Source: a virus (lineage: Duplodnaviria; Caudoviricetes). Taken from it: a DNA stretch of 32,455 nt. The DNA lies in the IMG/VR virus record IMGVR_UViG_3300030085_001831, positions 1 to 32,455 of that record; one strand, given 5' to 3'. Under the pieces are notes generated by a model. The model did no database searches and was not told the DNA's origin. It was given only the letters and a program-made list of their open reading frames with translations. Numbering within the stretch: the stretch's first letter is position 1; each line of letters opens with the position of its first letter. Positions 1,678 to 32,455 of the stretch are shown in pieces. The position numbers and the translations under genes were made by a program.

Positions 1678-1875
1678 TTATGTCTTGATTACTTCCAAGG
1701 CCTCATACTTTATCTCAGACCTGTTGCCTGACTGGTAGCACTGGAAGCATGAGAATGTTCCTGCGGCGTCAATGATGAAGGCGCTGTATGCAACCTCCAC
1801 CATCGATCCACAGTGCTGACAGCGACTAAGCCGCCTCTGCCGCTTTGATTCTTGTTTTCTCTTTCTTGAAGGCAT
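1678..1875 (-). CDS. Small zinc-ribbon protein (MPSRKRK...CQHC...CFQC)
   Basis: Two CxxC pairs; start at ATG 1875 is my choice and overlaps the Sak 3' end. Confidence 0.6.
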   Translation of the reverse strand: MPSRKRKQESKRQRRLSRCQHCGSMVEVAYSAFIIDAAGTFSCFQCYQSGNRSEIKYEALEVIKT

Positions 1876-2428
1876 TGGTGACAGCAGACTTGCGTTGCTT
1901 GTTGAAGGTTCCGATTGCTTGTGCATTAACCTTCCAGAGAGTATCGATGTCGTCAACGGTTTTGGCATTAGCAAAGTCCTGAATGATCTTGGCCTTCAGC
2001 TCATCCTGCTCACCAGCGTCATCTTCATTCTCAGACAATGGCAGATCCTCACCGGCATAGACATTGATGCCGAGGCCGTGGAATGCGATTGCCTTCACCA
2101 GACAACGCTGCAGAGCCTTGTTGACCTGACCGCCATCGGGGTGAACAACTGATTGGTTCTTGTGATCCATGACATAGTGGATCTCGGTGTGAGCAATCTC
2201 ATCGATGGTGACAGTGACCATGACATAAGTATGGCCCTTTGTGTCACGCATGAACGGCAACGGATTGTTCTGGTTGTCACGGAAGATATGCTTCTCGAAA
2301 GTGGCATGCGGATACTGCTGCTTGACGTAGGCCCATGCCCAAGTCCAAGACAGATAGTCAAACTTGCCTTTCTTCTTGACCTCTTCGGACACATCAAAAG
2401 ACGACAGGTTCTGCCATACACTAGGCAT
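1826..2428 (-). CDS. sak: Sak/Rad52-like single-strand annealing protein (DUF1071-like)
   Basis: KKGKFDYLSWTWAW and VNKALQRCLVKAIAFHGLGINVYAGEDLP motifs; start coupled by TAATG with GGAGG RBS. Confidence 0.9.
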   Translation of the reverse strand: MPSVWQNLSSFDVSEEVKKKGKFDYLSWTWAWAYVKQQYPHATFEKHIFRDNQNNPLPFMRDTKGHTYVMVTVTIDEIAHTEIHYVMDHKNQSVVHPDGGQVNKALQRCLVKAIAFHGLGINVYAGEDLPLSENEDDAGEQDELKAKIIQDFANAKTVDDIDTLWKVNAQAIGTFNKQRKSAVTNAFKKEKTRIKAAEAA

Positions 2429-2640
2429 TAGATAACCCTCCATACACGGTATTCGTTTGAACTATGGCGACGAGTAGCGATCTTCATGCCACGGCGAGAA
2501 GCGGCATTCCTGATTGTCGCAATCTTACCAGCAGCGACCACAAAGCTATCGCCTACTTCCAGCTTATCCATCCAGTCCCACTTACCAGTTCTAGTGGTGG
2601 GTATAGGAAAGCCCTTCTCGATTTTAGGGTGATTAGCCAT
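2428..2640 (-). CDS. Small putative DNA-binding protein (IEKGFPIP...LEVGDSF type)
   Basis: 70 aa; basic; AAGGAGG RBS; motif common in small phage proteins. Confidence 0.75.
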   Translation of the reverse strand: MANHPKIEKGFPIPTTRTGKWDWMDKLEVGDSFVVAAGKIATIRNAASRRGMKIATRRHSSNEYRVWRVI

Positions 2641-3499
2641 CGTTATCCTCCTTTGGCTCAATGAGGCGACACGAGATAGTGCCGCTGCGTGATCGGGTCA
2701 CAGAGATCTTGTAACCCTTCATGTTGCCTGAACACGGATAGTCCATGCGTCTGCATCCTTCAGGCATCTTGGCTTTGATGAGTTGTTTGGCTGCGTCAGA
2801 CACAAGCTCGGATGACTTGGCAACAGAGATGTCGGCTGCATACATGTTGAGTTCAGCCTCACTGTTTTCTGTAAAGTCATCCATGTCACGCATGTCCTTG
2901 ATGACATACATGTCAGAGTGATCTGCTGGCGGCATTGCCATAGGCGCAGCCTCAACACCATTCTTGTACATGTTCCAGAAGTTGACACAGTTGTCGATAT
3001 ACATGCTGGCCCAGGACTGATCGAGAGTAAGCATACGCCACTCCATGCGGCAGCGAACACCGAACAGCGCTACGAGATAGCACCTGTCAGTACCGCTAAC
3101 GAGCATGTGATGCTGGCACTGAGGAGCATAGAAGTCAGCAAGCTCGTCCATGTCCTTGAATCCGAAGTGCGCCTTGATCTCCAGAGGAGCGTTGTCGCCA
3201 ACAACACGCCCATCAAAGGTAGAATGCAGAGGCACACCGTTACGGATAATAGTCTTGCCACCTCCACGGAAGTTGACCTGTCGCTTTTCAGCCTCGGCCC
3301 ACTTGTCGATGATGTATGGCTCCAAGTATGTTCCGGTATCCATAAGGAGCTGCGTCTGCTTTGAGAACTTAGCACGTTCTTCTCCCGCTTTCTGGCGCAT
3401 CAGAGTCATCCACTCTGCAATGTCGCCGCCAGCAATAATCTTGGCATCGGATGAGCCAATGTAAGTTGCACGTTCTTTCAGTTGAGCGTCAGTCAGCAT
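2633..3499 (-). CDS. YqaJ/lambda-exonuclease family protein
   Basis: IGSSDA, GTYLEP, STFDG, LEIK and YAPQCQHHM motifs; AGGAGG RBS before ATG 3499. Confidence 0.92.
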   Translation of the reverse strand: MLTDAQLKERATYIGSSDAKIIAGGDIAEWMTLMRQKAGEERAKFSKQTQLLMDTGTYLEPYIIDKWAEAEKRQVNFRGGGKTIIRNGVPLHSTFDGRVVGDNAPLEIKAHFGFKDMDELADFYAPQCQHHMLVSGTDRCYLVALFGVRCRMEWRMLTLDQSWASMYIDNCVNFWNMYKNGVEAAPMAMPPADHSDMYVIKDMRDMDDFTENSEAELNMYAADISVAKSSELVSDAAKQLIKAKMPEGCRRMDYPCSGNMKGYKISVTRSRSGTISCRLIEPKEDNDG

Positions 3500-3659
3500 C
3501 GTGTTCCTCCTGATATTCACGCCAGTTATCAACAAGCACTAGTTCCAGCCCATGCTCACATCCAATCTCTGTGGCTTGTGCATCAGCCTCTTCTCTTGTT
3601 GGTGCGTAAACCTCGAAGTAGTGATAGGTGTCGTACACCCATAGCTTATCCTTTCTCAT
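3489..3659 (-). CDS. Hypothetical 56-aa acidic protein (MRKDKLWVYDTYHYFEV...), not in the ORF track
   Basis: Translated by hand; ATGA overlap with the upstream stop; fills the gap exactly. Confidence 0.7.
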   Translation of the reverse strand: MRKDKLWVYDTYHYFEVYAPTREEADAQATEIGCEHGLELVLVDNWREYQEEHDAD

Positions 3660-4189
3660 ACCGGACACCTCGAATCCATCTCATCCATCTTTTCATTGTG
3701 GCATTCACACTCGCCAGCTTTGACGGTTGCGTAGTCACAATCATGTTCGCAGTCCACACGATCACCTGACGAGTTCTTGCCGCCAGATGCGTATGGATTG
3801 TCGAAGTCATCAAAGAAAAATGGACGATAGTCTTCTGGGTTTGTGCGGCTGTAGAAGTAAAGCTCTGCCTTACCGACAGGCTTGATTGATTCTTTCAGAA
3901 CTTCAAGCGGTGTCTTGAAGTCTACAGTCTCTCCCTCTTCGTCTGTGCCACAGAAGAGAGCATTGTTTGCAAGAGGATGGGGATAGTTCTTGTGAATCCA
4001 GAACCAGTTGGGCTGATACAGGCCCTCGTCATCGATGTAAGCACAGTCTCCATTCTCGTAGAGGCGAACAACATCGAACGTACGGCAACCAATGGCAGGA
4101 GAGATATCCTCCCATGTGTTGAACTTGAATTCATTGAACAGAAGATTGATGCCGTCATCAGCGGCGGTAAGCAGGAAGGCCTTCATCAC
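3656..4189 (-). CDS. DUF3846-like protein
   Basis: ISPAIGC..FDVVRL...AYIDDEGL pattern; AAGGAG RBS; Cys/His-rich C-terminal tail. Confidence 0.8.
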   Translation of the reverse strand: MMKAFLLTAADDGINLLFNEFKFNTWEDISPAIGCRTFDVVRLYENGDCAYIDDEGLYQPNWFWIHKNYPHPLANNALFCGTDEEGETVDFKTPLEVLKESIKPVGKAELYFYSRTNPEDYRPFFFDDFDNPYASGGKNSSGDRVDCEHDCDYATVKAGECECHNEKMDEMDSRCPV

Positions 4190-4251
4190 GGTACTCCTTG
4201 AATGTCAATACACACTACCATATAGTTGGCTTGTTATCGAGGGCTAATGCT

Positions 4252-4482
4252 ATGTGCGAACAGCAGTTTACCTCTGATTTAATCAAGCAATTTCAACGCC
4301 GTAGATACGATCTTGGCATAACTCAGGTCGCTCTGGATTCCATGCTCGGAGTTTCCCCTGGTGTCGTAGCCAAGTGGGAAATCGGAAACAGGAAGCCAAC
4401 ATTGTTCAATGCGTACTGCTGGGCTGAAGCCCTTGGTTGCAACATAAAATTAGAGGTGCGAGATGATGATCTGCGGGATTGA
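4252..4482 (+). CDS. XRE/Cro-family helix-turn-helix regulator
   Basis: RRRYDLGITQVALDSMLGVSPGVVAKWEIGNRKPTL; ATG 4252 follows GAGGG. Confidence 0.9.
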   Translation: MCEQQFTSDLIKQFQRRRYDLGITQVALDSMLGVSPGVVAKWEIGNRKPTLFNAYCWAEALGCNIKLEVRDDDLRD

Positions 4483-5014
4483 CCCCGGTGTTACCGGAGG
4501 CATTGCGTTTTACAATGGGCTGGAGTTGTACGCCCATCGTGTTCCCACATCCAAACTAGCCAACAAGAAAATTTTGGATATGGAAGGTATTTGCAAACTG
4601 CTGGTGCAATACGAACCTGACATGGTTTTTATTGAACAGCAGCAAGCCATGCCGAGGCAGGGTGTAGCCAGCACCTTCAAGACTGGCTTTGGCTACGGAG
4701 TTTACATCGGCATATTGCACGCACTTGGCTATAGCTACACAGTCGTCATCCCACGGAAATGGAAGTCAGATCTGGGCGTGCCTAGCGATAAGGATATGGC
4801 CCGGCAACGAGCAACTGATCTCATGCCAATGGGAGAGAGCAGCTGGTCTCGCAAATGCGAAGACGGTGTTGCCGAGGCATCGTTGATTGCCTATTGGGGC
4901 TTGTACTGCGGCCAGTCACCCAGCGGATCGAAGACAGGATTCTTGTCCAAGAACTTTACCAAAGCCTCAATGCGAGCTTTCTTTGGTCCTGATGACACCT
5001 TGCCGAAGCAGTAA
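4463..5014 (+). CDS. RuvC-like Holliday junction resolvase
   Basis: GIDPG, VFIEQQ, STFKTGFGYG, PRKWK and DGVAEASLIA RNase H-fold motifs. Confidence 0.88.
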   Translation: MMICGIDPGVTGGIAFYNGLELYAHRVPTSKLANKKILDMEGICKLLVQYEPDMVFIEQQQAMPRQGVASTFKTGFGYGVYIGILHALGYSYTVVIPRKWKSDLGVPSDKDMARQRATDLMPMGESSWSRKCEDGVAEASLIAYWGLYCGQSPSGSKTGFLSKNFTKASMRAFFGPDDTLPKQ

Positions 5015-6516
5015 TCCTCAAGCATCTCGATCTGATTGATCTTGTACTTGTTCAGCCATTTGGCGTCTGGTTTGAACCATCCACGTTCACCTGACGCCCT
5101 GCTGAGAGAAGCAAAGTCTGGGATGATTTCCTTGATCGTGTCAGAGTAGAAGTCATACTTGCCCAGACCCGTGAGGCAACACGCAACAAATAACTTATCA
5201 AGCTCCAAATCTGGGAGATCAACGCAGTACTTGAGCGGTGTAGTGCCGTCAGCATCGAAAGCGTCTCTAGCAGCGTCAATGTGAGACTGTATACACGCCT
5301 CATGAAGCGGATGTACATAATCATCTGGGTACTCCTCACTGGGGAACAGCGTCTGGTGATCTGCATAGACATGACCGACGCGGTTGGTGTGGTTGTAAGT
5401 ATATCCGAGGGATCGATGACAAAGCAGAGCCTTCATGATCTTGACGTAGCCAAGCTCATTCTCGAAGATGCTGTCTTTCATGAAGTGTGCGTAGTAACCA
5501 GCAAGCAACGCTTCTTGAGGCTTTGACATTGTAAGAGGCGTTACTTCACCCTCTTCCTCTGCCTCGACCTCCTGTGCTTCCTGCTGCTCCTTGGTCTCAC
5601 GCATCACAAGTTCTTGGATGGTGACAGCAAAACGAGAGCTATTGTACTGGATGCACAGTATTTTGTCGGCAATGCCATATGTCTCATGATTTTCATCATA
5701 GACAGCGGTGAAGCCACGGCACTCAGGGTCATCCCAATAGAATGAGTCACGCAGTAGGATGGCGTCTGCGTATCCTTTTGCACGATACTCTTCAACCATG
5801 TTGAGCAATGCACCCTGCTGAAGAGCCTCAAACTCCTCAACATTGGTGATATATTCCTCATCACTGAAGAGATCTGACTCTATGTTCAGCTTGTCACGAT
5901 TCTTGTCTACATCAAACAAAGCGTGCTTGACCTCAATCTTCTTCAGAGTCATGAAATGTTTGATTGAGGCGATGTGGTAGTTGACGTTCTCTTCCAGATA
6001 CTTGTCCTGCGCTGCATGATCGCCAAGCGTCAGAGCCTCTGCCACGCCGATGTTGAAGTCATAAGCACGGAACATCTGCTTGGCTTTGTCAGACAGCTCA
6101 GCGAGGCCCACACGCTGTTTAACCCACTTGTCAGTTTGACCAAAGCGAGCAGCGACTGACACAAAGTCTTCACTGCCGTCTGCAACAAGCGCCATGATGA
6201 CATCACACTCGTCAAGCGGGTGCATGTTCTCACGCATCATGTTGGCATGGAGGCCAACCTCACGATCATCAGAGTCAAGAACCACACAGTTTACGAGCGT
6301 GTCTTTGTCCTTGTGTATCTGGCGCAATGCTTCGAGGCGACGGCCGCCATCGATGACGTTGTAGCCCTTGCCGTTCTTGACGACGACAAGATTATGAAGC
6401 AGGCCCTTGGCCCTGATTGAGGCGACAAGCTGCCAGTGACCTTCTTTACTGGCTTTTACTTGCCTCACATTGTAGGGACTCTGCTTGAGTTCCTTCAGCG
6501 GTATCTGCTGTTGCAT
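4891..6516 (-). CDS. Long ParB/Spo0J N-terminal-domain protein (plasmid type)
   Basis: SPYNVR, SIRAKGLLHNL, IDGGRRLEAL, ANMMRENMHPLDE, HTH VAARFGQTDKWVKQRVGLAELS; about 350-aa C-terminal extension. Confidence 0.9.
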   Translation of the reverse strand: MQQQIPLKELKQSPYNVRQVKASKEGHWQLVASIRAKGLLHNLVVVKNGKGYNVIDGGRRLEALRQIHKDKDTLVNCVVLDSDDREVGLHANMMRENMHPLDECDVIMALVADGSEDFVSVAARFGQTDKWVKQRVGLAELSDKAKQMFRAYDFNIGVAEALTLGDHAAQDKYLEENVNYHIASIKHFMTLKKIEVKHALFDVDKNRDKLNIESDLFSDEEYITNVEEFEALQQGALLNMVEEYRAKGYADAILLRDSFYWDDPECRGFTAVYDENHETYGIADKILCIQYNSSRFAVTIQELVMRETKEQQEAQEVEAEEEGEVTPLTMSKPQEALLAGYYAHFMKDSIFENELGYVKIMKALLCHRSLGYTYNHTNRVGHVYADHQTLFPSEEYPDDYVHPLHEACIQSHIDAARDAFDADGTTPLKYCVDLPDLELDKLFVACCLTGLGKYDFYSDTIKEIIPDFASLSRASGERGWFKPDAKWLNKYKINQIEMLEDYCFGKVSSGPKKARIEALVKFLDKNPVFDPLGDWPQYKPQ

Positions 6517-6754
6517 CGGTTTTTTCCTCCGTTTGCATGATTACAAAATAGTTCTTCCACTCTCCTGCCTTTGGCTTGAAGCGGCACATGGGGAATGAGT
6601 AGCGCTCTTCCTTGGGTTTGAAAGTGATTACTTGGTGAACGATAGTTTCGTAACCCAGCTTGGGGCAGTAGTCCCAGAACTGAAGCGAGACCATATCGTT
6701 CTCCACCTTCCATGTGATTCGGTGGCAGTCGATTGAGATTGATGAGCTGTGCAA
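6446..6754 (-). CDS. Hypothetical protein
   Basis: TTG start with GGAGG RBS; overlaps the ParB 5' end. Confidence 0.6.
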   Translation of the reverse strand: MHSSSISIDCHRITWKVENDMVSLQFWDYCPKLGYETIVHQVITFKPKEERYSFPMCRFKPKAGEWKNYFVIMQTEEKTDATADTAEGTQAESLQCEASKSQ

Positions 6755-6755
6755 C

Positions 6756-6974
6756 TCAGTCCTCCATGATTTTGTCTGTCAAATACTTGCTGGCGAAGGC
6801 GACACCAATCCATAACGGTGCGCCCAGAACGCTCACCAGCAGGGTCGGATTGATCCCCATACCGACGAGTAAGGTCAGGACAAGAAACGACAAGGCTAGG
6901 TGAACAGTGACGAACCAGCCAATCCAGCGGGTCTTGTCGTTCAGGAAATTGAGTCGTCGTAGTGTATTGAGCAT
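6756..6974 (-). CDS. Small two-TM membrane protein
   Basis: 72 aa; two hydrophobic helices; GGAGG RBS. Confidence 0.8.
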   Translation of the reverse strand: MLNTLRRLNFLNDKTRWIGWFVTVHLALSFLVLTLLVGMGINPTLLVSVLGAPLWIGVAFASKYLTDKIMED

Positions 6975-7150
6975 GCGTTGTTCCTCCCGATGTAGAATTC
7001 TTTCTGGTCATCATCCATCTCCGATTCCAGCAAAAGGTCAGAGCCTCCGCATGTCGTGCAGAAGCCGCCGTTGTGATTATCGTAGTGTTTGAGATCTTCA
7101 TAAGATAAGTGCCATGTCTCACAGTCACGGCAGATGTAAACATCATTCAT
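6941..7150 (-). CDS. Small zinc-finger protein (CRDC...CTTC)
   Basis: ATG 7150 overlaps the upstream TGA (ATGA); two CxxC pairs. Confidence 0.75.
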   Translation of the reverse strand: MNDVYICRDCETWHLSYEDLKHYDNHNGGFCTTCGGSDLLLESEMDDDQKEFYIGRNNACSIHYDDSIS

Positions 7151-7344
7151 GGTTCCAGTATCCCTTCTCGAATCATGTCTGAGATCCTGTCCTCTACCCA
7201 AGGTTCCTTGAGGCGTTGGTACAGGCCGGTGTCGTGGATGTACTGCCAAGCGTCAACAAACTCCTGATCGGATCGAGGCGTCTCTATGCCTTTGGCAATC
7301 ATAACCGCCACATTGGGGGTCATATCACTTGTGAATGGTTTCAT
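7147..7344 (-). CDS. Hypothetical phage protein (AWQYIHDTGL motif)
   Basis: 65 aa; GAGGAG RBS. Confidence 0.8.
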   Translation of the reverse strand: MKPFTSDMTPNVAVMIAKGIETPRSDQEFVDAWQYIHDTGLYQRLKEPWVEDRISDMIREGILEP

Positions 7345-7494
7345 TGGCTTCTCCTCTGAGGCGGATCACTATGCTTACCTATCCACAGGGTAGCCATGGC
7401 CCCTGCTTCAAACCAACCTTACGTCTCGCTGAGTGGCTTTCCCACCGATGCGGTCGGCATCCACCCCTCAGCACAGCAATCACTCCGCACTTTC

Positions 7495-7534
7495 AAAAAG
7501 GGTGAGAGAGGCGGGGAGGAAATCCGCCCCTCTC
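7495..7534 (-). terminator. Probable intrinsic terminator after ssb
   Basis: Minus strand gagaggggcgg...ccgcctctc stem followed by tcaccc-TTTTT. Confidence 0.55.
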
Positions 7535-7543
7535 CATTTCAGA

Positions 7544-7960
7544 TTAGAATGGGATGTCGGTGTCGTCCACCTTCCCGCCAGCCGGGGCGTTACCACCCTC
7601 TGACTGGCTCCCACGGGAACCGAGGCGGAACGTCGAGCCAGCACCAGCCAGCTTGACCTTGAAGGAACGCTGAGTCTGGCCGTCCTTCTCGTACTCCTCG
7701 ATGATGGGTTGACCCTGAACGAACACGGTGCTGCCCTTCTTGAGGTACGGCTCGATGACGTTGGTGACGAGGCCTTTGCCATTGCCACCATCCCACGCTT
7801 CGCAGCGATACCAGTGGGTCTTTTCGACCTTCTCACCGGCCTTGTTGGTGTAGTTCTCGTTGACTGCGACAGAGAAGTTGGCAACCTTTGTGCCGTTCAC
7901 GTCACGGATCTCTGGGTCTGCACCAATGTTACCGGATACAGTGATCTGAGCGAAATTCAT
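7544..7960 (-). CDS. ssb: Single-stranded DNA-binding protein
   Basis: OB-fold motifs GNIGADPE, VANFSVAVN, THWYRCEAW, LKKGSTVFVQG; Gly-rich linker; acidic tail DDTDIPF. Confidence 0.97.
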   Translation of the reverse strand: MNFAQITVSGNIGADPEIRDVNGTKVANFSVAVNENYTNKAGEKVEKTHWYRCEAWDGGNGKGLVTNVIEPYLKKGSTVFVQGQPIIEEYEKDGQTQRSFKVKLAGAGSTFRLGSRGSQSEGGNAPAGGKVDDTDIPF

Positions 7961-7995
7961 GTCTGATTCTCCTTACGTTGGACATGATTGAAATG

Positions 7996-8093
7996 AGGCA
8001 GTTTACACGAGTCATGCCCAGGACTCCCAACAGGCGAGGGACTGTTGACTCCCACAGACAGTGAGTTGCAGGGAACATTGTTTCCCACTGCCT
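7996..8093 (-). promoter_or_regulatory. Structured ssb 5' leader (multi-hairpin or H-type pseudoknot)
   Basis: AGGCAGT/ACTGCCT outer stem closes four hairpins; GAGTC-ctgggcat-GACTC-gtgtaaac-TGCCT can pseudoknot. Confidence 0.55.
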
Positions 8094-8101
8094 GATCCAA
8101 A

Positions 8102-8386
8102 TCATCTTGGCTTAACTTCTTGCCACCGGAAGCGGAGCCCAGAACGGACAGGCCTCTTGTAACCTACTGCTTTCTTTGACAAAAGTAATGTCAGAGAAAT
8201 TAGGCACCCCCCTATCACTGCTGCCATCATGCCAGCAAAAGTGCCAGCAAACATGACGACAAGCAGCAATGTTGAGATGATGTCGATAGGAACGTCAAGC
8301 CAAAGAACTTTTTTGAAGTCAAACTTGGCTAGAAGAAACAGAATAGCGAGACCGGCAAACACACCGGCAATAACAAAGAACAACAT
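8102..8386 (-). CDS. Hypothetical membrane protein
   Basis: 94 aa; about three hydrophobic helices; basic tail; GAGGAG RBS. Confidence 0.85.
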   Translation of the reverse strand: MLFFVIAGVFAGLAILFLLAKFDFKKVLWLDVPIDIISTLLLVVMFAGTFAGMMAAVIGGCLISLTLLLSKKAVGYKRPVRSGLRFRWQEVKPR

Positions 8387-8473: not shown

Positions 8474-9091
8474 TTACTCAAGGTGCATGCTGTCTGCACC
8501 ATGATCCTGATCGACTGGTGCCTCGACCAACCCTGTCTCCCGGGCAAATGTCCAGAAGTCATCCTTGTTGGCTTGGTACGTCTCCATAGTGAGCTGACCC
8601 TTCCTGGCCCTCATCCGCTGAACCTTGGGCAGATCCTTGAGCCGAGTATAAGCGCCGAAGCTGATGCCGCTGACGTCGATGGCGTGCTGCCTGACAGGGC
8701 CGCGAGCTACCTTGAACGCCTCGTTGATTGTCCACCACTGGACACGAAGGCGCTCAAGCTGCTCGTCGTACTGCTCGATGGTGTTCTGCGTGATCTCGAT
8801 ACCGACATCGTTGCGGATGGCCTTGGCACGCTCACGCTTGACCTGAACGGCACGGTTAGCGACGTTGTCGAGCATCTTCTCGAACATGCGGGGCAGCTGG
8901 TCGCCGAGCTTGGCCTGTATGATGACGTCGTTGCCGTCGTCGAACATGTCGATGACAGCCTTGAGACGGCTGGCAAGCTCACGACACCACCGTGCATGGT
9001 AGTCGTCGTCGGGCAGCTGATCTTTCTGCAGTGCCTTGGCGATGCGGTCAAGATTCTCAGGTGTCAGGTCGTCCATTGTCATCTCAGTCAT
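8474..9091 (-). CDS. Hypothetical helical protein, probably highly expressed
   Basis: 205 aa; GAGGAG RBS; strong C/G-ending codon bias like ssb. Confidence 0.88.
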   Translation of the reverse strand: MTEMTMDDLTPENLDRIAKALQKDQLPDDDYHARWCRELASRLKAVIDMFDDGNDVIIQAKLGDQLPRMFEKMLDNVANRAVQVKRERAKAIRNDVGIEITQNTIEQYDEQLERLRVQWWTINEAFKVARGPVRQHAIDVSGISFGAYTRLKDLPKVQRMRARKGQLTMETYQANKDDFWTFARETGLVEAPVDQDHGADSMHLE

Positions 9092-9103: not shown

Positions 9104-9433
9104 TCAGTCAAACAGGTAGTTACGATAGCCTTTAACCCAGAACAAACTGGAACTGGCTTCTATCAAAACCTCGCAACCCTCTTGTGTCAGCTTGTCTGCC
9201 CAGCGATGCTCCTTGAACATCTTCTGCGAGTCAGCAGGGCAACCAAGGTTGTGCATGACGTTTAGTGCAGCAGTGATGCGTCGGATGTGCTTACGCAGCT
9301 CAGACTCCCAATCGCTCCACTCCCCACGGTGACAGGTCATCTCCTCACCAAGGTTGATGAGCAACTGCTCGTGGATACGGATAAGATCGGCAGGGCTGAT
9401 CTCCCAGATGGTGTTCGGTATCTTCGTAATCAT
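9104..9433 (-). CDS. Hypothetical protein
   Basis: 109 aa; GAGGTG RBS. Confidence 0.8.
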   Translation of the reverse strand: MITKIPNTIWEISPADLIRIHEQLLINLGEEMTCHRGEWSDWESELRKHIRRITAALNVMHNLGCPADSQKMFKEHRWADKLTQEGCEVLIEASSSLFWVKGYRNYLFD

Positions 9434-9490: not shown

Positions 9491-9688
9491 TCAGTCAAAG
9501 ATGTTGATATCAGAGTCGCTCATCTGCTCTGCAAGATCAGCAGCACGTTGCAGATCGCCTGACTCCAGTGCCAGACGAACCTCATCTGCTGCCCAGACAT
9601 CAGGCAGATCTGTGAACGAATGATGTGCGATGACGGTATCAGCAATGACCTCGGACTCATCGACCGGACGGAACTTGTATGGTTGCAT
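9491..9688 (-). CDS. Hypothetical acidic protein; first gene of the leftward arm
   Basis: 65 aa; AAGGAG RBS; D/E-rich. Confidence 0.82.
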   Translation of the reverse strand: MQPYKFRPVDESEVIADTVIAHHSFTDLPDVWAADEVRLALESGDLQRAADLAEQMSDSDINIFD

Positions 9689-9713
9689 GGTCTTTCTCCT
9701 TTACGTTTGACCA

Positions 9714-10254
9714 GTTCGCTACACACTCACAACGATTGGTAGCCTTGACCCCGCCGGACCACAGCAGGCTCGCAGCAGTCAAGCCCCTTGCCCGCAAGGG
9801 TGAATATTGTTTGGCCGGTATAGAACGAGATGATTGAGAAACATGAGCCGCGCTACTGCACGGCGACACCATACGGATCACACAAGATATGAGCCAAAGA
9901 ATATTCAGGGCTTTACTGATCGAGACTGAATGGGGTCATCATTTCATGATAGGCTAACAAATCGTTGTGTGTGTGTTTCAAGACAGAGAGTCGCCCTGTG
10001 GAGTTCGCTGATGTCCCCATCAGGACATCAGTGAAACACAGCGACGAACGGTAACGTGATGACTCGCATGTGAGTGTGTTAGCGGAACCCAGAATCTCAG
10101 CGGAAGGGCGGTGCGAGCCGACCTTTCACCTGAGATTATGATGGTGTCCGATTACTACGAATCATGCTGTTGATACGAGAACGAAAAGAAACGACACAGT
10201 AAGAACGTGATGTAGGTCAGGCTCCGCAGATGAGCTTTAGCTCAACCTGTGGAG
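9714..10254 (+). other. Large structured non-coding element (ssDNA promoter/origin or ncRNA)
   Basis: Nested inverted repeats 9721-9815 with 9893-9976; hairpins at 9990-10045, 10093-10137 and 10222-10254 with G-T pairs on the + strand; no credible ORF. Confidence 0.75.
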
Positions 10255-10260
10255 GAACAA

Positions 10261-10273
10261 TAACAATGGCTTA
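10261..10273 (+). promoter_or_regulatory. Possible IHF site
   Basis: TAACAAtggcTTA is one mismatch from WATCAANNNNTTR, just upstream of the terS promoter. Confidence 0.3.
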
Positions 10274-10284
10274 CAACAAGTGAC

Positions 10285-10315
10285 TTGACAGGGTTTTGAG
10301 AGGACTGTGTATACT
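10285..10315 (+). promoter_or_regulatory. Sigma70-type promoter for terS
   Basis: TTGACA-N19-TATACT, 26 nt before the ATG; the spacer is longer than optimal. Confidence 0.6.
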
Positions 10316-10341
10316 CGCTCGTAGCGCAACAGGACACGAAC

Positions 10342-10776
10342 ATGACCAAGGCAGACGAAAGCCAACAAGAGCGATACAAAGGTGGTGTGGTTCCGATGGA
10401 AGACATCGAGAAACATGCTCCCGAAGTGCGGACGGCACAGCCGCAAATTACTGATGCACAAGCGGAGTTGGTGCATGTAATCTTGCATGATGGTTGCAAC
10501 CCAACAGAAGCAGCAGAGAGGTTGGGCAGGAACAAGGCTTGGGCGTACAATACGCTACGAAAACAGCATGTTATCGAATACAGACAACAGTTGGCTATGC
10601 TGACTTTGGGATGGGACGCCACACAAGCGATGGCAACAATGAGAGAACTGCTGACAAGCAAGTCACAATACGTCAGGCTGGAAGCTGCAAGGGATCTGAT
10701 GGATCGTGCTGGATTCAGACAGGACGCGGTGAGAACACCTAGCACTGCGGTGCAGATTAACTTCAATGTTGACTAG
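10342..10776 (+). CDS. terS: Terminase small subunit (putative)
   Basis: N-terminal HTH (NPTEAAERLG), SQYVRLEAARDLMDRAG, C-terminal strand VQINFNVD; first late gene. Confidence 0.8.
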   Translation: MTKADESQQERYKGGVVPMEDIEKHAPEVRTAQPQITDAQAELVHVILHDGCNPTEAAERLGRNKAWAYNTLRKQHVIEYRQQLAMLTLGWDATQAMATMRELLTSKSQYVRLEAARDLMDRAGFRQDAVRTPSTAVQINFNVD

Positions 10777-16418: not shown

Positions 16419-17177
16419 ATGAGTGAGGAACTTCAGGAGACCGCAGAGGTCGAAGAACAGCCACAGGTTCAGGCAGATGTGCAGGAGCAACCTGAGGAAT
16501 CATTTACTGACAGGCCAGATTGGCTTCCAGAGAAATTCAAGACCCCAGAGGACATGGCGAAAAGCTATGGTGAGCTTGAGCGTGGATTCTATCAGCGTAA
16601 GGATGATCTGCGTGAGCAGATTATTGATGAGATCAATCAGGATGCGATGAAAGATGCTCCTGCCAGTCCCGCTGACTATGATGTCAACTTTCAAGCGCCA
16701 GAAGGCATGGAGTATACCGTTGACGATGATGATCCTCTTCTTGGCTGGTTTAAGGGCAAAGCTCATGAGTATGGCTTGTCCCAAGATGAGTTCGATGGAC
16801 TTATCAATGAATATGCACAGGCAGATCTTCAACGTGGGCCTGACTGGAATCAGGAATCAGAAGCCCTTGGTGAGTATGCAGAAGATCGACTAAACCGTGT
16901 AGACGGTTGGGCGAGGGGTAGCCTGACGCAAGAAGGCTATGAGGTCTTTGCCAACATTCCTGCATCTGCCGGCATGGTGCAACTTTTTGAAGAGCTGATG
17001 GAGCTGAATGGCCAGCCGCAGTTCAATATGGTTTCTGAAACAGAGTTTCAGGAAGTTCTTTCTCTGGACGAGCTTAGATCCATGCAAAATGATCCTAAGT
17101 ATTGGAAGGAGAAAGACCCTGCATATATCGCTAAGGTGCGTGCAGGGTTCGATCAGTATTCTCGGCGCAACCGTTAA
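16419..17177 (+). CDS. Capsid scaffolding/assembly protein
   Basis: Acidic; RPDWLPEKF near the N-terminus and DPKYW near the C-terminus; directly before the capsid gene. Confidence 0.9.
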   Translation: MSEELQETAEVEEQPQVQADVQEQPEESFTDRPDWLPEKFKTPEDMAKSYGELERGFYQRKDDLREQIIDEINQDAMKDAPASPADYDVNFQAPEGMEYTVDDDDPLLGWFKGKAHEYGLSQDEFDGLINEYAQADLQRGPDWNQESEALGEYAEDRLNRVDGWARGSLTQEGYEVFANIPASAGMVQLFEELMELNGQPQFNMVSETEFQEVLSLDELRSMQNDPKYWKEKDPAYIAKVRAGFDQYSRRNR

Positions 17178-17212
17178 TGTGAATTAACAAGCTGAGAATA
17201 TTGTGACATGTT
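17177..17212 (+). promoter_or_regulatory. Putative late promoter for the capsid gene
   Basis: ATGTGAATTAAC shared with 29123-29134; TTAACA-N17-CATGTT with a TGn extension. Confidence 0.5.
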
Positions 17213-25100: not shown

Positions 25101-25140
25101 CTATATGCTTGATCGCATCACATCACTAGGTTGGCGTTAA
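22120..25140 (+). CDS. Internal virion protein, T7 gp15-like by position
   Basis: 1006 aa; helical, Ala-rich; synteny only. Confidence 0.75.
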   Translation: MAFKKTGGRSALVQPTGLPNFSGFKQAAASYNQIGELAYGIGLDDRKRQFNQLIRQAEIDGRTAGVVYDEKGDLVPLTNFDYAKASETYAEADQKQILSTYRKAAVQTYVNAAANDINSAAAQALIDNPNDPAAIRSSAQGYLQGIENLDDEIYTALAPKVASAFTKVENQALAQQRSDEIKYAVDQGTKAYNQNAIELGVLYAKSEGTNNPAQAKALQDRINEILGEQADIIMGLEANEVSSVTIDEMQDAQATVIAAKVSQSGVERAYYSGGAAEAYRLIKDTVAEAELNPEVDSATLRAVMTQSVQTLSAIETAENQAQKEVLTGIYNDLYKRVVIDGLDITAELANPSSPIHGLEGTQQAALFSVGTSLAQQTEQNAKKLRDDQLKGYRAEYDNHLSIFENPTQTTPAMAMQAMRDIKLLHGMGLLGDTGDKLLLEAGTKFDEAMVAFAAGDIEKQGSVISMELNPNLSSYTKSPAYYRNEMYMSGLESKNIIGKGGYWSDREAFINDVNTYAGHFKKRVDLARDAGVAERKILNTIMPTAAELKAFSQVKGFDKVRNLQTGEIIPMDLLSEDENIFMASADNVAAFAVQSKGLLHPGAFDLFESASKNIENADRAIRVMGQTMDAIRSARDIDSSQVEGIFYSNLSEDTVAFLRIAGRVGPELAVDAFAADRNMNRNASGLVANSKYADRPESEALESIFMDSYNEAIEAKSFFKLLQPYITDADNQMLYQMANDAGVRNVEGMILSDPYIKQAMKSLFIGKMLKYPQYVPAEAMRDTIREIGTRVGPQVNAYTGGLEFVTNPILPNAQATVGNAGITLGMDDINRDIKDMFLRTPAIIDPTIAEQIARVDEAPMIGGGLFGDPSRLGNPVLFYVPNESYGATQSYTVLLKTTAGKVIPLLEDYSYDFKRSQAYESFLESVDTLKSDRMKNFFSAYGLMDQSLLQSGFDSIERTRSDRSFDGLFNLYNSTFRADIGQDPITPEEKDEFFYMLDRITSLGWR

Positions 25141-28100
25141 TGAGCAATATTGATTGGAAGTTTATCTCTGACCGTGAGGGATCTCGTATTCTGTCAGGCT
25201 ATGTTCCTGATGCAAAGGGGTCTAAGTCTGGCGTTACCATCGCTACAGGCTTTGATCTTGGGGCAAGAAACCTTGCTGATCTCAAAGGATTGCCAAAGGC
25301 CATCATTGATAAGCTCAAGCCCTATCTTGGAATTAAAGGCGCACAGGCCCAAGAGGTGGCAAAGGATTTAAGTATTACTGATGCTGAAGCGCAGACAATC
25401 GATGAGTTTTCCAAAACAGAAGCTGTAGACAGACTGAAAGCAAAGTGGCAGGCAGCCACAGGTGAGTCTTTTGATGATCTGCCTAAGCACAAAGCTACTG
25501 TCGTTGCATCTGTTGCATTTCAGTATGGGGATCTTGAGAGCCAAACGCCTAACTTCTGGCGTCAGATAACCAAAGATGACTGGAATGCAGCAGAGAAGAA
25601 TCTGCGAAACTTTGGGGATAACTACAGTACAAGACGAAACCTTGAAGCAGATTACTTTATTAGCGGCTTGAGCGAGGAAGAACTCGCAGCAAAAAAAAAA
25701 TTTGAGCGAGAGTTAGCAAGGGATACTCAATACGGCATACAGGAAGCCATGATCTCTGGGGAAGAGGGTGGCCTTGGTTCTGCGCCTACTGGACCTCAAG
25801 AAGTAAGCCCAAGGGACATGTCCAATGAGCAGCTTGTTGATCTTGTTCAGTCTCAGATAGCTGACTCAAGAGCCGCTAGACTAGATCTTGATGAACAAGA
25901 CTTTGAGGTATCTGGCACCTCCCCTGCTGCCGATGATGTCGAGCTTCCTATAATCGAAGAGATATCAGATGAGTCTGCTGTCTTAGTTGACCCAGCTCCT
26001 ATTATTGCTGACTCCTCCACAACAAAAGCCAATGCGTCTTTGCCCACTCAAGAAGAGGTGACTAATAGCTACGGTATCGTTTTTGGAGATCAGAACCGTA
26101 AGTACGGGGAAAGAGTTCCATCTCAACTAACAGACCCAGAAGCATATGACTACTTCGTCTTCGATGAGTCTTTCTCAAATGTTTGGGGAACAGCATTCAA
26201 GCAAGGAAACTTTGCCCCCGCACTTGCAAAAATGCTGACAACAGAGAATTACAAAACAGTTGATGGTTATGATGCTCATCAAGATGCTGCTCTTGCAAAA
26301 AGAATGGGTGGTACAGATGGTCTTTGGCGCTTCAGGTTTTCCGGTAGCCCTGAAGAGTCGATGGCAATGGCTGATGAGATGGAAGAGGATGCACAGGACG
26401 CCCTTCTTCTTGCCAGCACATATTCTCAGAACGCCCAACTTATGGCTGGGCTTGCAACGCCTACTAGCTTAGCGCCTCTCGCTCCAATGAAGCTGCTGAA
26501 TGTTGCTAACAAGACAAGACGTTTTGTTGGCGGCACTGCTTACACATATGCTTTGATGGCACCGGAACAGATGCTGCTGGACAGCCAGAATACTCAAAGA
26601 GACGCAAGCCATAGCGCTGTCATGCTTACAGGACTTAGCCTTATAGGTGGGGGTTTGGCTTATAAGTTTGGCGGCAGGGGACTGTCCACCTCAACAGCGC
26701 TAACTCCTCCCAATCAAATATACCGTGCTGGTGGTGCTGGTGTTAGTCCTGAAAGAGCAAGGCAAGCTGCCTACGCTCAGATTGAGCAAGAGGGATTAGA
26801 AGCTACTGGCATAGGCATCGAAAAGCTGGGGTGGAACCCTGTGCTGCGTATGCTGCAAAGCCCGAATCCATATGTTCGCGGTCTTGCTGTAGGCATGGTC
26901 GATGTGGGCGGCATGATGCAGAAGAAGGTTCGTGGTCAACAGGAAGCCATGGATCAATCCGTAGAGACAACCTTTAGAACCACCTATCTCTCACGACTGC
27001 TCGATTCTGTCAGACACAGCGATGAAGCGTATCTTGCCTATAGGGGCAGATCCATCCCTCAGTCTGACTCTCGCCGTGCATTTGAGATGATGAAGATGAA
27101 TCTTGGCGATACGTTCCGTGGAACAACAGAGCTTACAGAAGTTCAGTTTCGCAACCGTGTTGGCATGGCAATGCGCCGTGGTGATGCTGACCAGATGAAT
27201 GACGCCGCAAGCTCCTATGTTACTCAGGCAGCTCGTGGTTATCGTGATGTCTTCAATTTTATCAGGGATCAAGCTCAGAGTGTCAGGCTGTTTGAAAAGC
27301 AGCTTGCAGCCGACATTGAAGCCGCAAGGATTGCTGGCAATCTTGATGAAGTGGCAAGGCTTGAGCAGCGCCTTACAAAGCTGCAAATGGAAGGCGTCAC
27401 TCCCAACACAGCGCCTTCCTATTTGCCCAGGATATATCGTGTAGACAAGATTATGGAGAATCCTGAGAGGTTCCTGTCGATAATTGAGAAATATGCAAGA
27501 ACGCAGCTTCGCATGGGTCAGAAAGAAGCCAAGCAGTTTGCCAATGACGTATTAGATACTGTTACTCACCAGCGCCCCTATCTGGATCTTGAGGGAGCAA
27601 CAGATGGTCTAGATTGGGTAAAACGTGCCAGTGGTGTTCAAGCAAGAACTCTTGAGATTGAAGATGAGCTGATCGAGGAGTTTCTTGAAAGTGATATCGA
27701 GACGTTGGTGCGTCACCATGTTAAGACGATGGGGATGGATATCGAAATTGCCAGACGCTATGGCGATGTAAATATGCAGTCTGTTCTTGACGATGTTGCC
27801 GAAGAGTACAAAACCCTTATGAAAGAAGCCCCCAATCCAGAAGCAAGGGCAGAACTTGCTAGGGCATTGGAGCGTGACATAAATGATATTAGGGGTTTGA
27901 GAGACAGGCTCCGTGGCACATACGGTGCATCGAAAGACCCCCATGCACTATCTAGCCGTGTTGTAAGAGTCATGAAGTCATTCAATGTTCTTTCTGGCAT
28001 GGGAAGCGCAATGGTTAGCTCTGTCCCTGACGTTGCTCGTATTGTCATGGTTGAGGGCCTGTCTAATGCTTATCGCAAGGGCTTTATGGCCCTGTTTGAT

Positions 28101-29123
28101 GAGCAAGCAGCAATCATTAGCAGGATGTCAAAGGAAGAGCTAAGCAAAGCCGCTGTCGGCGTAGATGCTACGCTTGGCCTTAGAGCGCATGCAATGTCTG
28201 ATGTTGGCGATCTGTTTGGATCTCGTTATGGGCTGGAGCGCGGCCTCAATAAAGCAACAGGCATGTTCTTCTTTTTCAATGGCCTTAACCTCTGGAACCA
28301 AGCCCTAAAGGAGATGGCTGGCAATGTGACCATGCTCCGCATGACTGAATCCATTATGAAGCCATGGAACAAGCTAAGCGCTGCTGATAAAGAAAAGCTG
28401 CTAAAGAACGGCATCGATCAGGCTGACTTCGGTCGAATGAAAGCTTTGATTAAAGAGCATGGCGAACAGATAAATGGTGAGTGGCTTCCAAATACAGATG
28501 CTTGGAATGATGCCACTATGCGTCTGAAGTTTAGAAACGCTCTAAACCAGAATGTAGAGAGGATTATCATTACGCCGGGTGCTGGTGATCGTGCATTGTG
28601 GACATCTACAGAGTTTGGATCACTGATGACACAGTTCAAGTCTTATGGTCAGGGCGCCATGGTTCGCATGGCTACTGCTGGCCTGCAAGAGAAAGACGGT
28701 GCTTTCTGGCAGGGCGCATTCCTGATTGTGGGGCTGGCAGCAATGATCAATGAGATTAAGAGAGTGCAGTACGGCATCGACAAGGAAGAGGACTTCGATC
28801 AGAAGCTAATCAATGCTGTAGACAGGTCTGGCATTCTTGGCTGGGCAATGGATGTAAACAATGCTGTTGAAAAGATTTCAGATCAGAAGATGGGAATGCG
28901 TCCATTCCTGACAGATCAGCCATCATATGTTATGCCAGAAGGCGCAAAAGCTGGGGCTGTATTTGGCCCAGCAGCCAGCAATGTAATGAATGTTGGCAGC
29001 ATTTTAGGTGATGTTGTGACTTTTAACGCAGACGCCCAAACCATGAGTGACCTTAGATTCTCCATGCCAACAGGCAACCTGTTCTATCTTGACCCAATTT
29101 ATGATGGAATCTTGGGTCAGTGA
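25140..29123 (+). CDS. Large internal virion protein (T7 gp16-like) with N-terminal pesticin-like muramidase domain
   Basis: ATG 25140 is coupled by TAATG; FISDREG...GYVP...SGVTIATGFDLG is the pesticin C-terminal lysozyme signature; C-terminal LMTQFKSY motif. Confidence 0.88.
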   Translation: MSNIDWKFISDREGSRILSGYVPDAKGSKSGVTIATGFDLGARNLADLKGLPKAIIDKLKPYLGIKGAQAQEVAKDLSITDAEAQTIDEFSKTEAVDRLKAKWQAATGESFDDLPKHKATVVASVAFQYGDLESQTPNFWRQITKDDWNAAEKNLRNFGDNYSTRRNLEADYFISGLSEEELAAKKKFERELARDTQYGIQEAMISGEEGGLGSAPTGPQEVSPRDMSNEQLVDLVQSQIADSRAARLDLDEQDFEVSGTSPAADDVELPIIEEISDESAVLVDPAPIIADSSTTKANASLPTQEEVTNSYGIVFGDQNRKYGERVPSQLTDPEAYDYFVFDESFSNVWGTAFKQGNFAPALAKMLTTENYKTVDGYDAHQDAALAKRMGGTDGLWRFRFSGSPEESMAMADEMEEDAQDALLLASTYSQNAQLMAGLATPTSLAPLAPMKLLNVANKTRRFVGGTAYTYALMAPEQMLLDSQNTQRDASHSAVMLTGLSLIGGGLAYKFGGRGLSTSTALTPPNQIYRAGGAGVSPERARQAAYAQIEQEGLEATGIGIEKLGWNPVLRMLQSPNPYVRGLAVGMVDVGGMMQKKVRGQQEAMDQSVETTFRTTYLSRLLDSVRHSDEAYLAYRGRSIPQSDSRRAFEMMKMNLGDTFRGTTELTEVQFRNRVGMAMRRGDADQMNDAASSYVTQAARGYRDVFNFIRDQAQSVRLFEKQLAADIEAARIAGNLDEVARLEQRLTKLQMEGVTPNTAPSYLPRIYRVDKIMENPERFLSIIEKYARTQLRMGQKEAKQFANDVLDTVTHQRPYLDLEGATDGLDWVKRASGVQARTLEIEDELIEEFLESDIETLVRHHVKTMGMDIEIARRYGDVNMQSVLDDVAEEYKTLMKEAPNPEARAELARALERDINDIRGLRDRLRGTYGASKDPHALSSRVVRVMKSFNVLSGMGSAMVSSVPDVARIVMVEGLSNAYRKGFMALFDEQAAIISRMSKEELSKAAVGVDATLGLRAHAMSDVGDLFGSRYGLERGLNKATGMFFFFNGLNLWNQALKEMAGNVTMLRMTESIMKPWNKLSAADKEKLLKNGIDQADFGRMKALIKEHGEQINGEWLPNTDAWNDATMRLKFRNALNQNVERIIITPGAGDRALWTSTEFGSLMTQFKSYGQGAMVRMATAGLQEKDGAFWQGAFLIVGLAAMINEIKRVQYGIDKEEDFDQKLINAVDRSGILGWAMDVNNAVEKISDQKMGMRPFLTDQPSYVMPEGAKAGAVFGPAASNVMNVGSILGDVVTFNADAQTMSDLRFSMPTGNLFYLDPIYDGILGQ

Positions 29124-30876: not shown

Positions 30877-31194
30877 ATGACTGTAGCAGCAAGAGATTCT
30901 GTAAGAGAAGACCTGATTCAAGCCTTAGAGCTTGGAACAGTACAAACCATTAGCGTAGCAAGTAGCAGTGCGGCAACAAGCTCTGCAATGGCAAGTGGAT
31001 CAAGGGTTGTTCGTGTTGTTAGCACGACTGACTGTCATATCCTTTTTGCAGCAAGCCCCACAGCAACAACAAGCAGCACCTATCTCCCAGCTAATCAGGT
31101 TGAGTACTTCAAGGTGCCTGTCCCTGGCACATCAAAGCTGGCCGCTATCAGAGCCAACGCCGACGGAACCCTGTATGTAACCGAGATGGCCTAA
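30877..31194 (+). CDS. Small beta-rich structural protein (possible spike/fibre base)
   Basis: 105 aa; S/T/A/V-rich; AGGAG RBS; coupled to the next gene. Confidence 0.7.
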   Translation: MTVAARDSVREDLIQALELGTVQTISVASSSAATSSAMASGSRVVRVVSTTDCHILFAASPTATTSSTYLPANQVEYFKVPVPGTSKLAAIRANADGTLYVTEMA

Positions 31195-32455
31195 TGCTGA
31201 AAAACCCCGGACTACGCAAGAGCGTCGAGCAACCTGTCCTCGACCTGAACTTTGCCGCATCACAAATTGGCTCTAACGGTGCGCCTGATGGGCGTATGAA
31301 CGATTTCAATCGTGGCAGCAACGCGTGGTTCGTGGACTCTGATGGTCTGGTGAAGAAGTCGCCGCATAACTTGATACTGTCTAGTGAGACAATAGTTCAT
31401 GGCGCTTCTGGGTGGCTTGGAGCAGGGGCCAGTCTTGAGTCTAGCCCAGAATCTCCTGATGGAATTGATGGCTCTACAAAGGTTACTTGGAATGGGGTTG
31501 GCCAGCTTTACAATTTAGTTAGTGGCATTGTTGCGGGTCAGACATATCAGTTTAGCTACTATGTAAAGCTCGGTACAAAAATCAACAATCGCTATGCAGT
31601 TTATGACCATACAAATACTACTTTTATAATCACTTCTTCGATTACATCAGGTGTGTCTTCTTCTGAATGGACGCGAGTTAATTTTACAGTCACAGCGCCA
31701 TCAGGTTGCACACAGATACGTTTTTATCCTGATAGGGCTGAAAACAACAGCACTGAAACAGGAACGACCTTCATTACAGGCGTCCAAGTCAGCCAGCACA
31801 GCACCCTGCCTGTAGACAACCCCTATCTTAAAACCACTGGCAGCGCGGTGTATGCTGCACGGCTTGACCACGACCCGACTTGGTTTATGTCGGCGGCGCA
31901 AGAGCAGAACCTCCTGCAATACAGCGAGATGCTAGATGACAGCTATTGGAGCAAAACCCGCACCACTGTCACGGCAAACGCTTTAGAAGCGCCTGATGGA
32001 ACGGTTACCGCAGAGCTATTGTCAGAAGACACTAGCAGCAGCAATACTCACATTCTTAGACAAAGCACCCCTGCTGATGTTCCACAAACAGCAGGAAAAT
32101 CATATGTGTTTAGCGGTTATCTAAAAGCGGGTGGCCGTCATAGAGCAAGGATTAGATTCGAAAGTTCTGCTCATCAAGCACATGTCAATTTAATTGATGG
32201 CACAATCAATAACCTTGGTATGGATTCTGTTTCTTTGACCGACGAGGGAAATGGATGGTTCCGATTTGCTGGCGTACAAACAGCAGATGCAACAAACGAC
32301 CCTTTAATTCAAATAATGTTGATTGCAGATGACGGCTCGACCAACTACACAGGCGACGGCTCTAGCGGTGTTTATGTCTGGGGTTTGCAGCTAGAGGTCG
32401 GCACTAGCCCCAGCACCTACCACCGCACGGAGGGTGCGCCTTATTACGGCGAGGG
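31194..32455 (+). CDS. Spike/fibre protein with tandem carbohydrate-binding-like modules (3' truncated), not in the ORF track
   Basis: MLKNPGLRK...VLDLNFA; repeats NLILSSE / NLLQYSE...APDGT...VYVWGLQLEVGTSPSTY; frame appears open to the window end. Confidence 0.85.
   Translation, partial: MLKNPGLRKSVEQPVLDLNFAASQIGSNGAPDGRMNDFNRGSNAWFVDSDGLVKKSPHNLILSSETIVHGASGWLGAGASLESSPESPDGIDGSTKVTWNGVGQLYNLVSGIVAGQTYQFSYYVKLGTKINNRYAVYDHTNTTFIITSSITSGVSSSEWTRVNFTVTAPSGCTQIRFYPDRAENNSTETGTTFITGVQVSQHSTLPVDNPYLKTTGSAVYAARLDHDPTWFMSAAQEQNLLQYSEMLDDSYWSKTRTTVTANALEAPDGTVTAELLSEDTSSSNTHILRQSTPADVPQTAGKSYVFSGYLKAGGRHRARIRFESSAHQAHVNLIDGTINNLGMDSVSLTDEGNGWFRFAGVQTADATNDPLIQIMLIADDGSTNYTGDGSSGVYVWGLQLEVGTSPSTYHRTEGAPYYGE

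Follow-up and report, generated by a model that had tools for sequence, protein, structure and literature searches.

Phage N4, a dsDNA podophage, has an early promoter that is recognised as a template-strand hairpin; the N4 hairpins are short and perfect, and they are read by a virion RNA polymerase. The minus-strand origin of M13/f1 and the plasmid ssoA are ssDNA hairpins at which host polymerase makes a primer, and 6S RNA, a long rod with a promoter-like internal loop, mimics a promoter by its shape. Single-strand promoters have been documented for conjugative plasmids, whose DNA arrives as one strand; such elements (Frpo/ssi) fold, rebuild a -35 and a -10 box, and are silent as duplex (PMC9849209, PMC11541004, PMC12672017). 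In the literature covered, mainly open-access main texts, there was no report of an element like the one described here or of an ssDNA early promoter hairpin in a bacteriophage, and no paper on pelagiphage Hodr; catalogues of viral candidate RNAs could list parts of the element.

The window, that is, the whole stretch of DNA analysed (32,455 nt), is the 32.5-kb genome of a marine podophage on one contig. Its closest cultured phage is Pelagibacter phage Hodr (TerL 59%). TerL had no match in the PDB, and a host search for the clade of the window found just two binned contigs in genomes. Leftward early genes and rightward genes (terS, terL, head-tail connector, capsid, tail and internal virion genes) flank a divergent gap at 9689-10341, which holds the structure. 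The genes around it are as follows.

9491..9688, - strand: first early ORF, 65 aa, at the head of the leftward operon; function unassigned
9696..9701, - strand: ribosome-binding site of the first early gene, from the sequence
1826..7960, - strand: early genes downstream of the hairpin
7544-7960, - strand: ssb
4891-6516, - strand: ParB-like protein, 541 aa
2633-3535, - strand: lambda-exonuclease/YqaJ
1826-2443, - strand: Sak annealase
10285..10315, + strand: late promoter, TTGACA-19 nt-TATACT, before terS
10342..10776, + strand: terminase small subunit (terS), first late gene (PHROG 2538/7344)

In 63 loci, a family of the size of the first early ORF lay at distance 0. The window gave no recognisable polymerase, helicase or primase (38 ORFs scanned, 22 rescanned), and 47 of 49 early protein families had no informative Pfam match. 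The interval 8474-9091 had no match in the Atlas, and the single-sequence structure model of 9104-9433 was unusable (pLDDT 43). Elsewhere in the window, the internal virion protein at 25131-29123 starts with a pesticin-type lysozyme domain (PF16754), and a strong hairpin at 17154-17205, at the end of the scaffold gene and upstream of the capsid gene, gave a coarse z of -11.8 (17001-17200) and is not followed by a clear U tract. A long tail-type ORF from ~31194 runs off the window end (31194-32455 and 1-83), so the contig is probably incomplete or permuted there. The early operon of Hodr encodes ArdC, an ssDNA-binding antirestriction protein (PF08401 + PF18818, L081:13573-14457), which is annotated merely as hypothetical.

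Relatives were collected with TerS. From 80 IMG/VR TerS loci we obtained 54 distinct complete gaps of 430-1,027 nt (close set), and a Hodr TerS query gave 59 further gaps (Hodr-like set); Hodr-type TerS alone was estimated to occur in ~1,400 IMG/VR stretches. The late promoter was present at 54/54 close loci as TTGACA-19 nt-TATA(A/C)T, with 11-12 of 12 consensus matches and a 19-nt spacer. Spacers of 19 nt favour supercoiled DNA, and this spacer between perfect or near-perfect boxes suggests dependence on supercoiling or on an activator. The spacer of the Hodr late promoter is 17 nt, against 19 in all 54 close relatives. For the leftward early genes, a consensus scan of the same 54 loci found no linear promoter: the best candidates matched 8-10 of 12 positions, which is the level of shuffles, and had no fixed place. 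In MEP301 and SI2 (TerL 37-40%) the stem is absent and a linear early promoter could be seen by eye. The latter, named Dunaliella viridis virus SI2 (L246, NC_023841), has a bacteriophage gene set and the same divergent layout.

Folding of the interval 9700-10270 gave z values against shuffles of -9.05 (RNA parameters) and -9.44 (DNA parameters) on the + strand, and weaker values of -5.91 and -6.58 on the - strand. Single mismatches within helices were G.T rather than A.C on the + strand in the 54 relatives (37 vs 18; shuffled, 18 vs 21) and in the 59 Hodr-like loci (34 vs 18; shuffled, 8 vs 15). A cruder, alignment-based wobble count on the first set had shown no bias (250 vs 241) and was superseded by the in-helix count. 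Double compensatory changes occurred at 14 of 47 consensus pairs in 10 aligned stems. The structure between the early genes and terS is genuine, and the + strand is favoured; in this respect the wobble bias and the z values bear out the preliminary description, which had taken the + strand as the folded one. The structure is composed of the following parts.

9721..9976, + strand: giant imperfect stem (itself the conserved core), predicted ssDNA promoter, from folds; the 5' arm is the predicted template and the 3' arm the predicted non-template
9783..9911, + strand: apical stem domain, exchangeable among relatives
9990..10254, + strand: right-hand hairpin field, variable and mosaic (9990-10045, rod 10066-10167, 10222-10254)

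The preliminary description had read these parts as a single ~540-nt multi-domain non-coding RNA, possibly a replication primer. All letters that it quoted stand where it had placed them. Its hairpins at 9990-10045, 10093-10137 and 10222-10254 were reproduced, as were the stems below the GCGA (10113-10116) and GCAA (9794-9797) loops, with ensemble pair probabilities mostly of 0.6-1.0 in both cases. A hairpin proposed at 10062-10075 is outcompeted by the rod 10066-10167 (p 0.02-0.21), and the multibranch closure between 9714-9721 and 10080-10088 had p <=0.01 under both RNA and DNA parameters; its two arms co-occur in just 5/54 relatives. Each module of that description shares 12-mers with just 2-6 of the 54 gaps.

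A comparable long stem was found in each of 44 distinct relatives, with spans of 231-478 nt. The part to its right ranged from 80 to 558 nt. The gap sequence is mosaic even at 99% TerS identity, with right-hand hairpins swapped or lost among close relatives, and four further runs showed module swaps at 9716-9966 and 10053-10194. Since the structure is kept while the right-hand part varies, the stem is the conserved unit, not the 540-nt whole. The right-hand field was folded (z <= -2.9) in 12/12 sampled close relatives; in most of 9 Hodr-like loci its folding was weak or absent. In most of the 20 Hodr-like folds listed, a long stem lies beside the first early gene; z values on the + strand ranged from -4.6 to -13.9 (10 sampled), and strand preference was mixed. 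These stems, including that of Hodr (L081:12190-12370), often enclose the early ribosome-binding site, and the 3' arm then carries its mirror, which in Hodr is followed by a tiny ORF.

Two further details of the stem were observed. A small apical hairpin (9847-9864), whose loop contains a conserved ACTG, is retained by several otherwise different stem families, and it is possibly a site for a protein or primase. The 3' base of the stem (9965-9976) consists, in nearly all close relatives, of a (GT)n run that pairs by G.T wobbles; it may double as a recombination junction for the module swaps. Another gap, upstream of ssb (7955-8115), also folded on the + strand (coarse RNA z -5.2), although not significantly as DNA (z -1.65); at 7960-8100 the leader resembles that of the first early gene, and this gap varies among relatives.

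Within the giant stem, a -35 helix forms between the two arms and a TAnnnT hexamer lies on the 3' arm, an arrangement that directs the unit towards the ribosome-binding site of the first early gene. The elements in the window are listed below.

9777..9782, - strand: -35 box, template side; the minus strand reads TTGACT
9912..9917, + strand: -35 box, non-template side, TTTACT; pairs with 9777-9782 with one T.C mismatch (pair probabilities 0.84-1.0)
9950..9955, + strand: predicted -10 box TAGGCT, where the lower helix has its upper end; AAGGCT when read on the minus strand
9937..9942, + strand: CATCAT, the alternative candidate for the -10; on the 3' arm it follows the -35 by 19 nt
9939..9949, + strand: mini-hairpin looped out of the 3' arm (pair probabilities 0.76-0.91), with a counterpart in most relatives
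about 9756-9766, 5' arm: template loop, ~11 nt
9733..9737, - strand: transcription start as predicted from the -10 position; the first early ATG follows 45-49 nt later

A -35 match of at least 5/6, located 76-100 nt before the early ATG, was present in 35/44 stems from 12 spacer families, where 15% was expected. Its partner on the 3' arm begins with TT in 31 of 32 paired cases and has T (17) or G (13) at position 3, where the T.C mismatch often falls; a third-position mismatch presumably spares the bases that are read by sigma region 4. For the -10 box, 80 gaps gave 67 distinct stems, 53 with a -35 in the search window and 14 without. TAnnnT was found on the 3' arm of 35/53 stems, with 13 different middles, compared with 16.5% at matched random places and 9/53 on the minus strand; it was missing in 18/53. 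The pattern held in more distant loci examined later. This assignment was revised post hoc: CATCAT, a conserved anchor in 26 stems that in the window is paired or within the mini-hairpin, was chosen first, and TAGGCT replaced it once distant loci indicated the hexamer after the mini-hairpin. In the window, the -12 T of TAGGCT is mostly unpaired and its -11 A lies in a base pair (p 0.96). A fork finder that used neither box placed A at -11 in just 17/38 stems and was clean for one stem family only.

On the linear sequence, the two boxes are separated by ~24-33 nt (in the window, 30 nt along the minus strand and 32 nt along the 3' arm), a non-functional spacing. When the stem folds, ~10 nt of each arm are looped out, which leaves ~19-21 steps in the window and ~17-21 in relatives, as counted by eye; the folded spacing of ~17-21 bp assumes that the loops stack out.

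The hybrid promoter facing the early genes was compared with control readings, using one representative per cluster. In the close set it scored better than the apex-facing reading (17/24, p 0.002), the strand-swapped reading (18/24, p 0.003) and the linear minus strand (19/24, p 0.0001), and it did not exceed a fourth control (14/24, p 0.11); stem sequences are related rather than independent, so these p-values are optimistic. The 3' arm also has a TATCAT-type hexamer on its minus strand, and this probably raises the score of the fourth control. In the Hodr-like set the hybrid exceeded 3/5 controls (the other two, p 0.11 and 0.19), and the fixed-distance -35 test gave 11/49 against 12%. Hodr and its clade have a similar stem, and support for the boxes is weaker there.

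That minus-strand hexamer, together with a TTGAC that is linear on the minus strand, could belong to an ordinary dsDNA leftward promoter with a good -35 and a non-consensus or activator-dependent -10; the fold would then have its effect in the leader RNA of the minus strand or serve as a binding site. The Hodr-like stems, which fold about equally on both strands and often enclose the ribosome-binding site, agree with such an arrangement. After the minus-strand -35, however, no conserved hexamer occurs at normal spacing, and in the close set the wobble bias and loop motifs favour the + strand; we give this explanation little credence.

Whether the folded strand is RNA or DNA was addressed from several sides. 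RNA and DNA energy parameters did not discriminate between them. Loops of the form c(G..A)g, which like cGAAg suit DNA, numbered 30 on the + strand (3-6 nt) against 4.5 in shuffles; cGAAg was the commonest triloop, and cUUCGg was absent on + among 141 tetraloops. GNRA loops, which suit RNA, were likewise enriched (15 vs 3.8), and a first loop test with a looser stem filter showed no triloop enrichment. The loop types lean to DNA and are not decisive. The pair of -35 and -10 boxes facing the early genes is kept across unrelated stem sequences, which indicates DNA. The element is probably DNA rather than RNA, and the alternative of ssDNA, which the preliminary description had itself raised, is a live one. 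Extrusion of a cruciform from the duplex was considered as well and found implausible (-363 vs -61 and -55 kcal/mol, a cost of ~250 kcal/mol).

A + strand non-coding RNA, either ornate in the manner of GOLLD/ROOL or a 6S-like mimic of an open promoter that binds host polymerase, would agree with the + strand fold, the G.U-type wobble bias, the covariation, the A-rich unpaired linkers and the GNRA enrichment. From four RNA runs, 27 contigs were placed on the window; among the 25 pieces listed, one lies within the structure (9946-10166) and another overlaps its final 60 nt. Such contigs carry no information on strand, level or ends, and they fall here in a mosaic region. Against such an RNA, no + strand promoter above shuffle level was found left of the stem in the 54 loci, so the RNA would have no visible start, and no U-tract terminator follows 10254. 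The closing helix is absent, the modules are mosaic, and the lack of cUUCGg on + also speaks against it. The sequence-exact -35 and -10 boxes are hard to account for in A-form RNA, and the early genes would be left without a promoter. We consider this explanation unlikely, and the single ~540-nt RNA of the preliminary description is unsupported, given the missing closing helix, the lack of a + strand promoter before the stem and the mosaic modules. The Rfam check that it had called for gave no match at the gathering threshold for the window or 11 relatives, and two chance hits in E-value mode. A ColE1 RNA II-type primer was not indicated either: a promoter of its own was not found, and there was no Rfam or plasmid similarity. 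The primer idea falls as part of one 540-nt RNA and persists in altered form, because Frpo-type promoters can make primer RNA too (PMC12672017).

Our preferred reading, held with moderate confidence and drawn from sequence comparison, is that the giant stem is a Frpo-like single-strand DNA promoter that is unrelated to Frpo in sequence. The + strand, when single-stranded and folded, would act as a promoter for the early genes, and the duplex would provide none. Host sigma70 polymerase would bind the folded + strand, start near 9733-9737 and copy leftward, so that a leader of 45-49 nt runs into the ribosome-binding site at 9696-9701. The product would be early mRNA for ssb, the ParB-like protein, the exonuclease and Sak, and perhaps a replication primer. 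Once the duplex was restored, the early promoter would be off and the late promoter with its 19-nt spacer would take over. The right-hand hairpins may be accessory folds that compact the exposed strand.

The same DNA anatomy would serve a single-strand origin only, of the M13 minus-origin or ssoA type, at which a short primer is made on the displaced + strand during replication while early mRNA comes from elsewhere. The lack of a recognised helicase, primase or polymerase in the window would fit, and so would the skew of TAGCG, which we take to be the core of ssoA CS-6 (24 on + vs 2 on -). That explanation leaves open why the unit ends tens of bases before the ribosome-binding site in every relative, and where the other early promoter is, and we regard it as improbable on its own. 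A single-strand origin and an ssDNA early promoter are compatible, not exclusive.

The ssDNA promoter that we favour has a difficulty of its own: by gene content (terminase, connector) these are dsDNA phages, and we know of no single-stranded stage for them. MEP301 has been described as a dsDNA phage (PMC8024684). A single strand would most likely arise at the injected genome end, through resection by a helicase-nuclease or exonuclease of the host. In the part right of the stem, A[AG]CGG occurred 93 times on + and 18 times on - (28.7 expected) and was found in 37/44 loci. In the window it stands at three places.

10047, 10081 and 10099, + strand: A[AG]CGG motifs

We take AGCGG to be the Chi sequence of Bacillus, and the orientation of A[AG]CGG fits a Chi site for an enzyme entering from the terS side. 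The motif was absent from the Hodr-like set. The skew is a candidate Chi-like or priming signal. In one study, Chi is read on the 3'-ended strand with ~20% efficiency per site, and the putative Chi of Caulobacter is a different 8-mer (PMC5443536).

Alternatively, the structure might mark the end of the genome for packaging, ejection or recombination (as a pac, injection-stop or decoy signal), and the boxes would then be there by coincidence. This hypervariable structure adjoins terS, and in many contigs a break falls within 200 nt of that gene, where termini and assembly breaks are not separable; in another study, marine phage reads with terminal repeats mostly had fixed ones, an observation that is not specific to this clade (PMC7111524). 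No depth doubling over the region was found in the four runs that showed the module swaps, which is weak evidence against such a signal and too weak to exclude a terminal repeat. With boxes conserved far above background, coincidence seems very improbable.

A broader scenario, which we put forward tentatively and consider rather doubtful, extends the ssDNA promoter to the timing of infection. A large lytic marine podophage clade that includes Hodr would time infection by the state of its DNA. One end would be made single-stranded deliberately, either by host AddAB resection via the clustered Chi-like A[AG]CGG sites or by one-strand delivery, and early transcription would have the folded + strand as its only promoter. 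The SSB, exonuclease and Sak made early would then restore the closed duplex, silencing that promoter and licensing the late promoter with the 19-nt spacer. A dsDNA tailed phage that depended on an ssDNA promoter for all early transcription must, if this is true, have a single-stranded stage; such a stage is currently absent from phage biology, and the phage may exploit host end-processing enzymes instead of blocking them. The clade concerned is large and has a cultured member in Hodr.

The known systems differ in how closely they resemble this locus. As in the ornate GOLLD and ROOL RNAs, the stretch is large, phage-encoded, non-coding and richly structured; unlike GOLLD, ROOL and OLE, it has no Rfam covariance match and no promoter or terminator to delimit an RNA, and its domains are freely swapped. 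GOLLD often lies near tRNA islands (PMC12286853), and no tRNA is nearby here. Unlike 6S RNA, the element lacks an Rfam match, its boxes are sequence-specific, and its polarity leads into a ribosome-binding site. The M13/f1 and ssoA origins are those of ssDNA or rolling-circle replicons, which have an HUH initiator; no such initiator was recognised here. With N4 the locus shares a template-strand hairpin as a putative early promoter, and it differs in its ~255-nt stem and sigma70-type boxes. No virion-encoded RNA polymerase was recognised by Pfam, PHROGs, NCBIfam or the Atlas (a comparison at sequence level), and the 1006-aa virion protein was closest to T7 gp15-like clusters.

The resemblance to Frpo/ssi goes further. 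In both, a long imperfect hairpin of the template strand lies upstream of the genes it serves or would serve, and both boxes are rebuilt by folding. When folded for comparison, the F plasmid hairpins that precede ssb and the DUF932 operon agreed with the stem in strand, orientation and scale, and, as in the F leading region, ssb and a ParB-family gene lie downstream; ArdC in the early operon of Hodr adds to this likeness of gene neighbourhood. Over 237 aa, the N-terminus of the ParB-like protein shares 29% identity with the ParB-family protein that follows ssb in the F leading region, which is possibly generic ParB similarity. The distance from stem base to ATG is ~33 nt here and ~105-125 nt in F. 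There was no sequence homology to Frpo classes 1-3 (blastn against 72,556 plasmids gave four chance matches, E 0.5), and blastn of the intergenic region against phages and plasmids found nothing. Unlike Frpo/ssi, the element belongs to a tailed phage, whose 38 scanned ORFs include neither a relaxase nor transfer genes; it appears to be the sole early promoter, and its spacer is shortened by looped-out segments. By this analogy, the element would be Frpo-like in its working, while by sequence and context it is not a member of Frpo.
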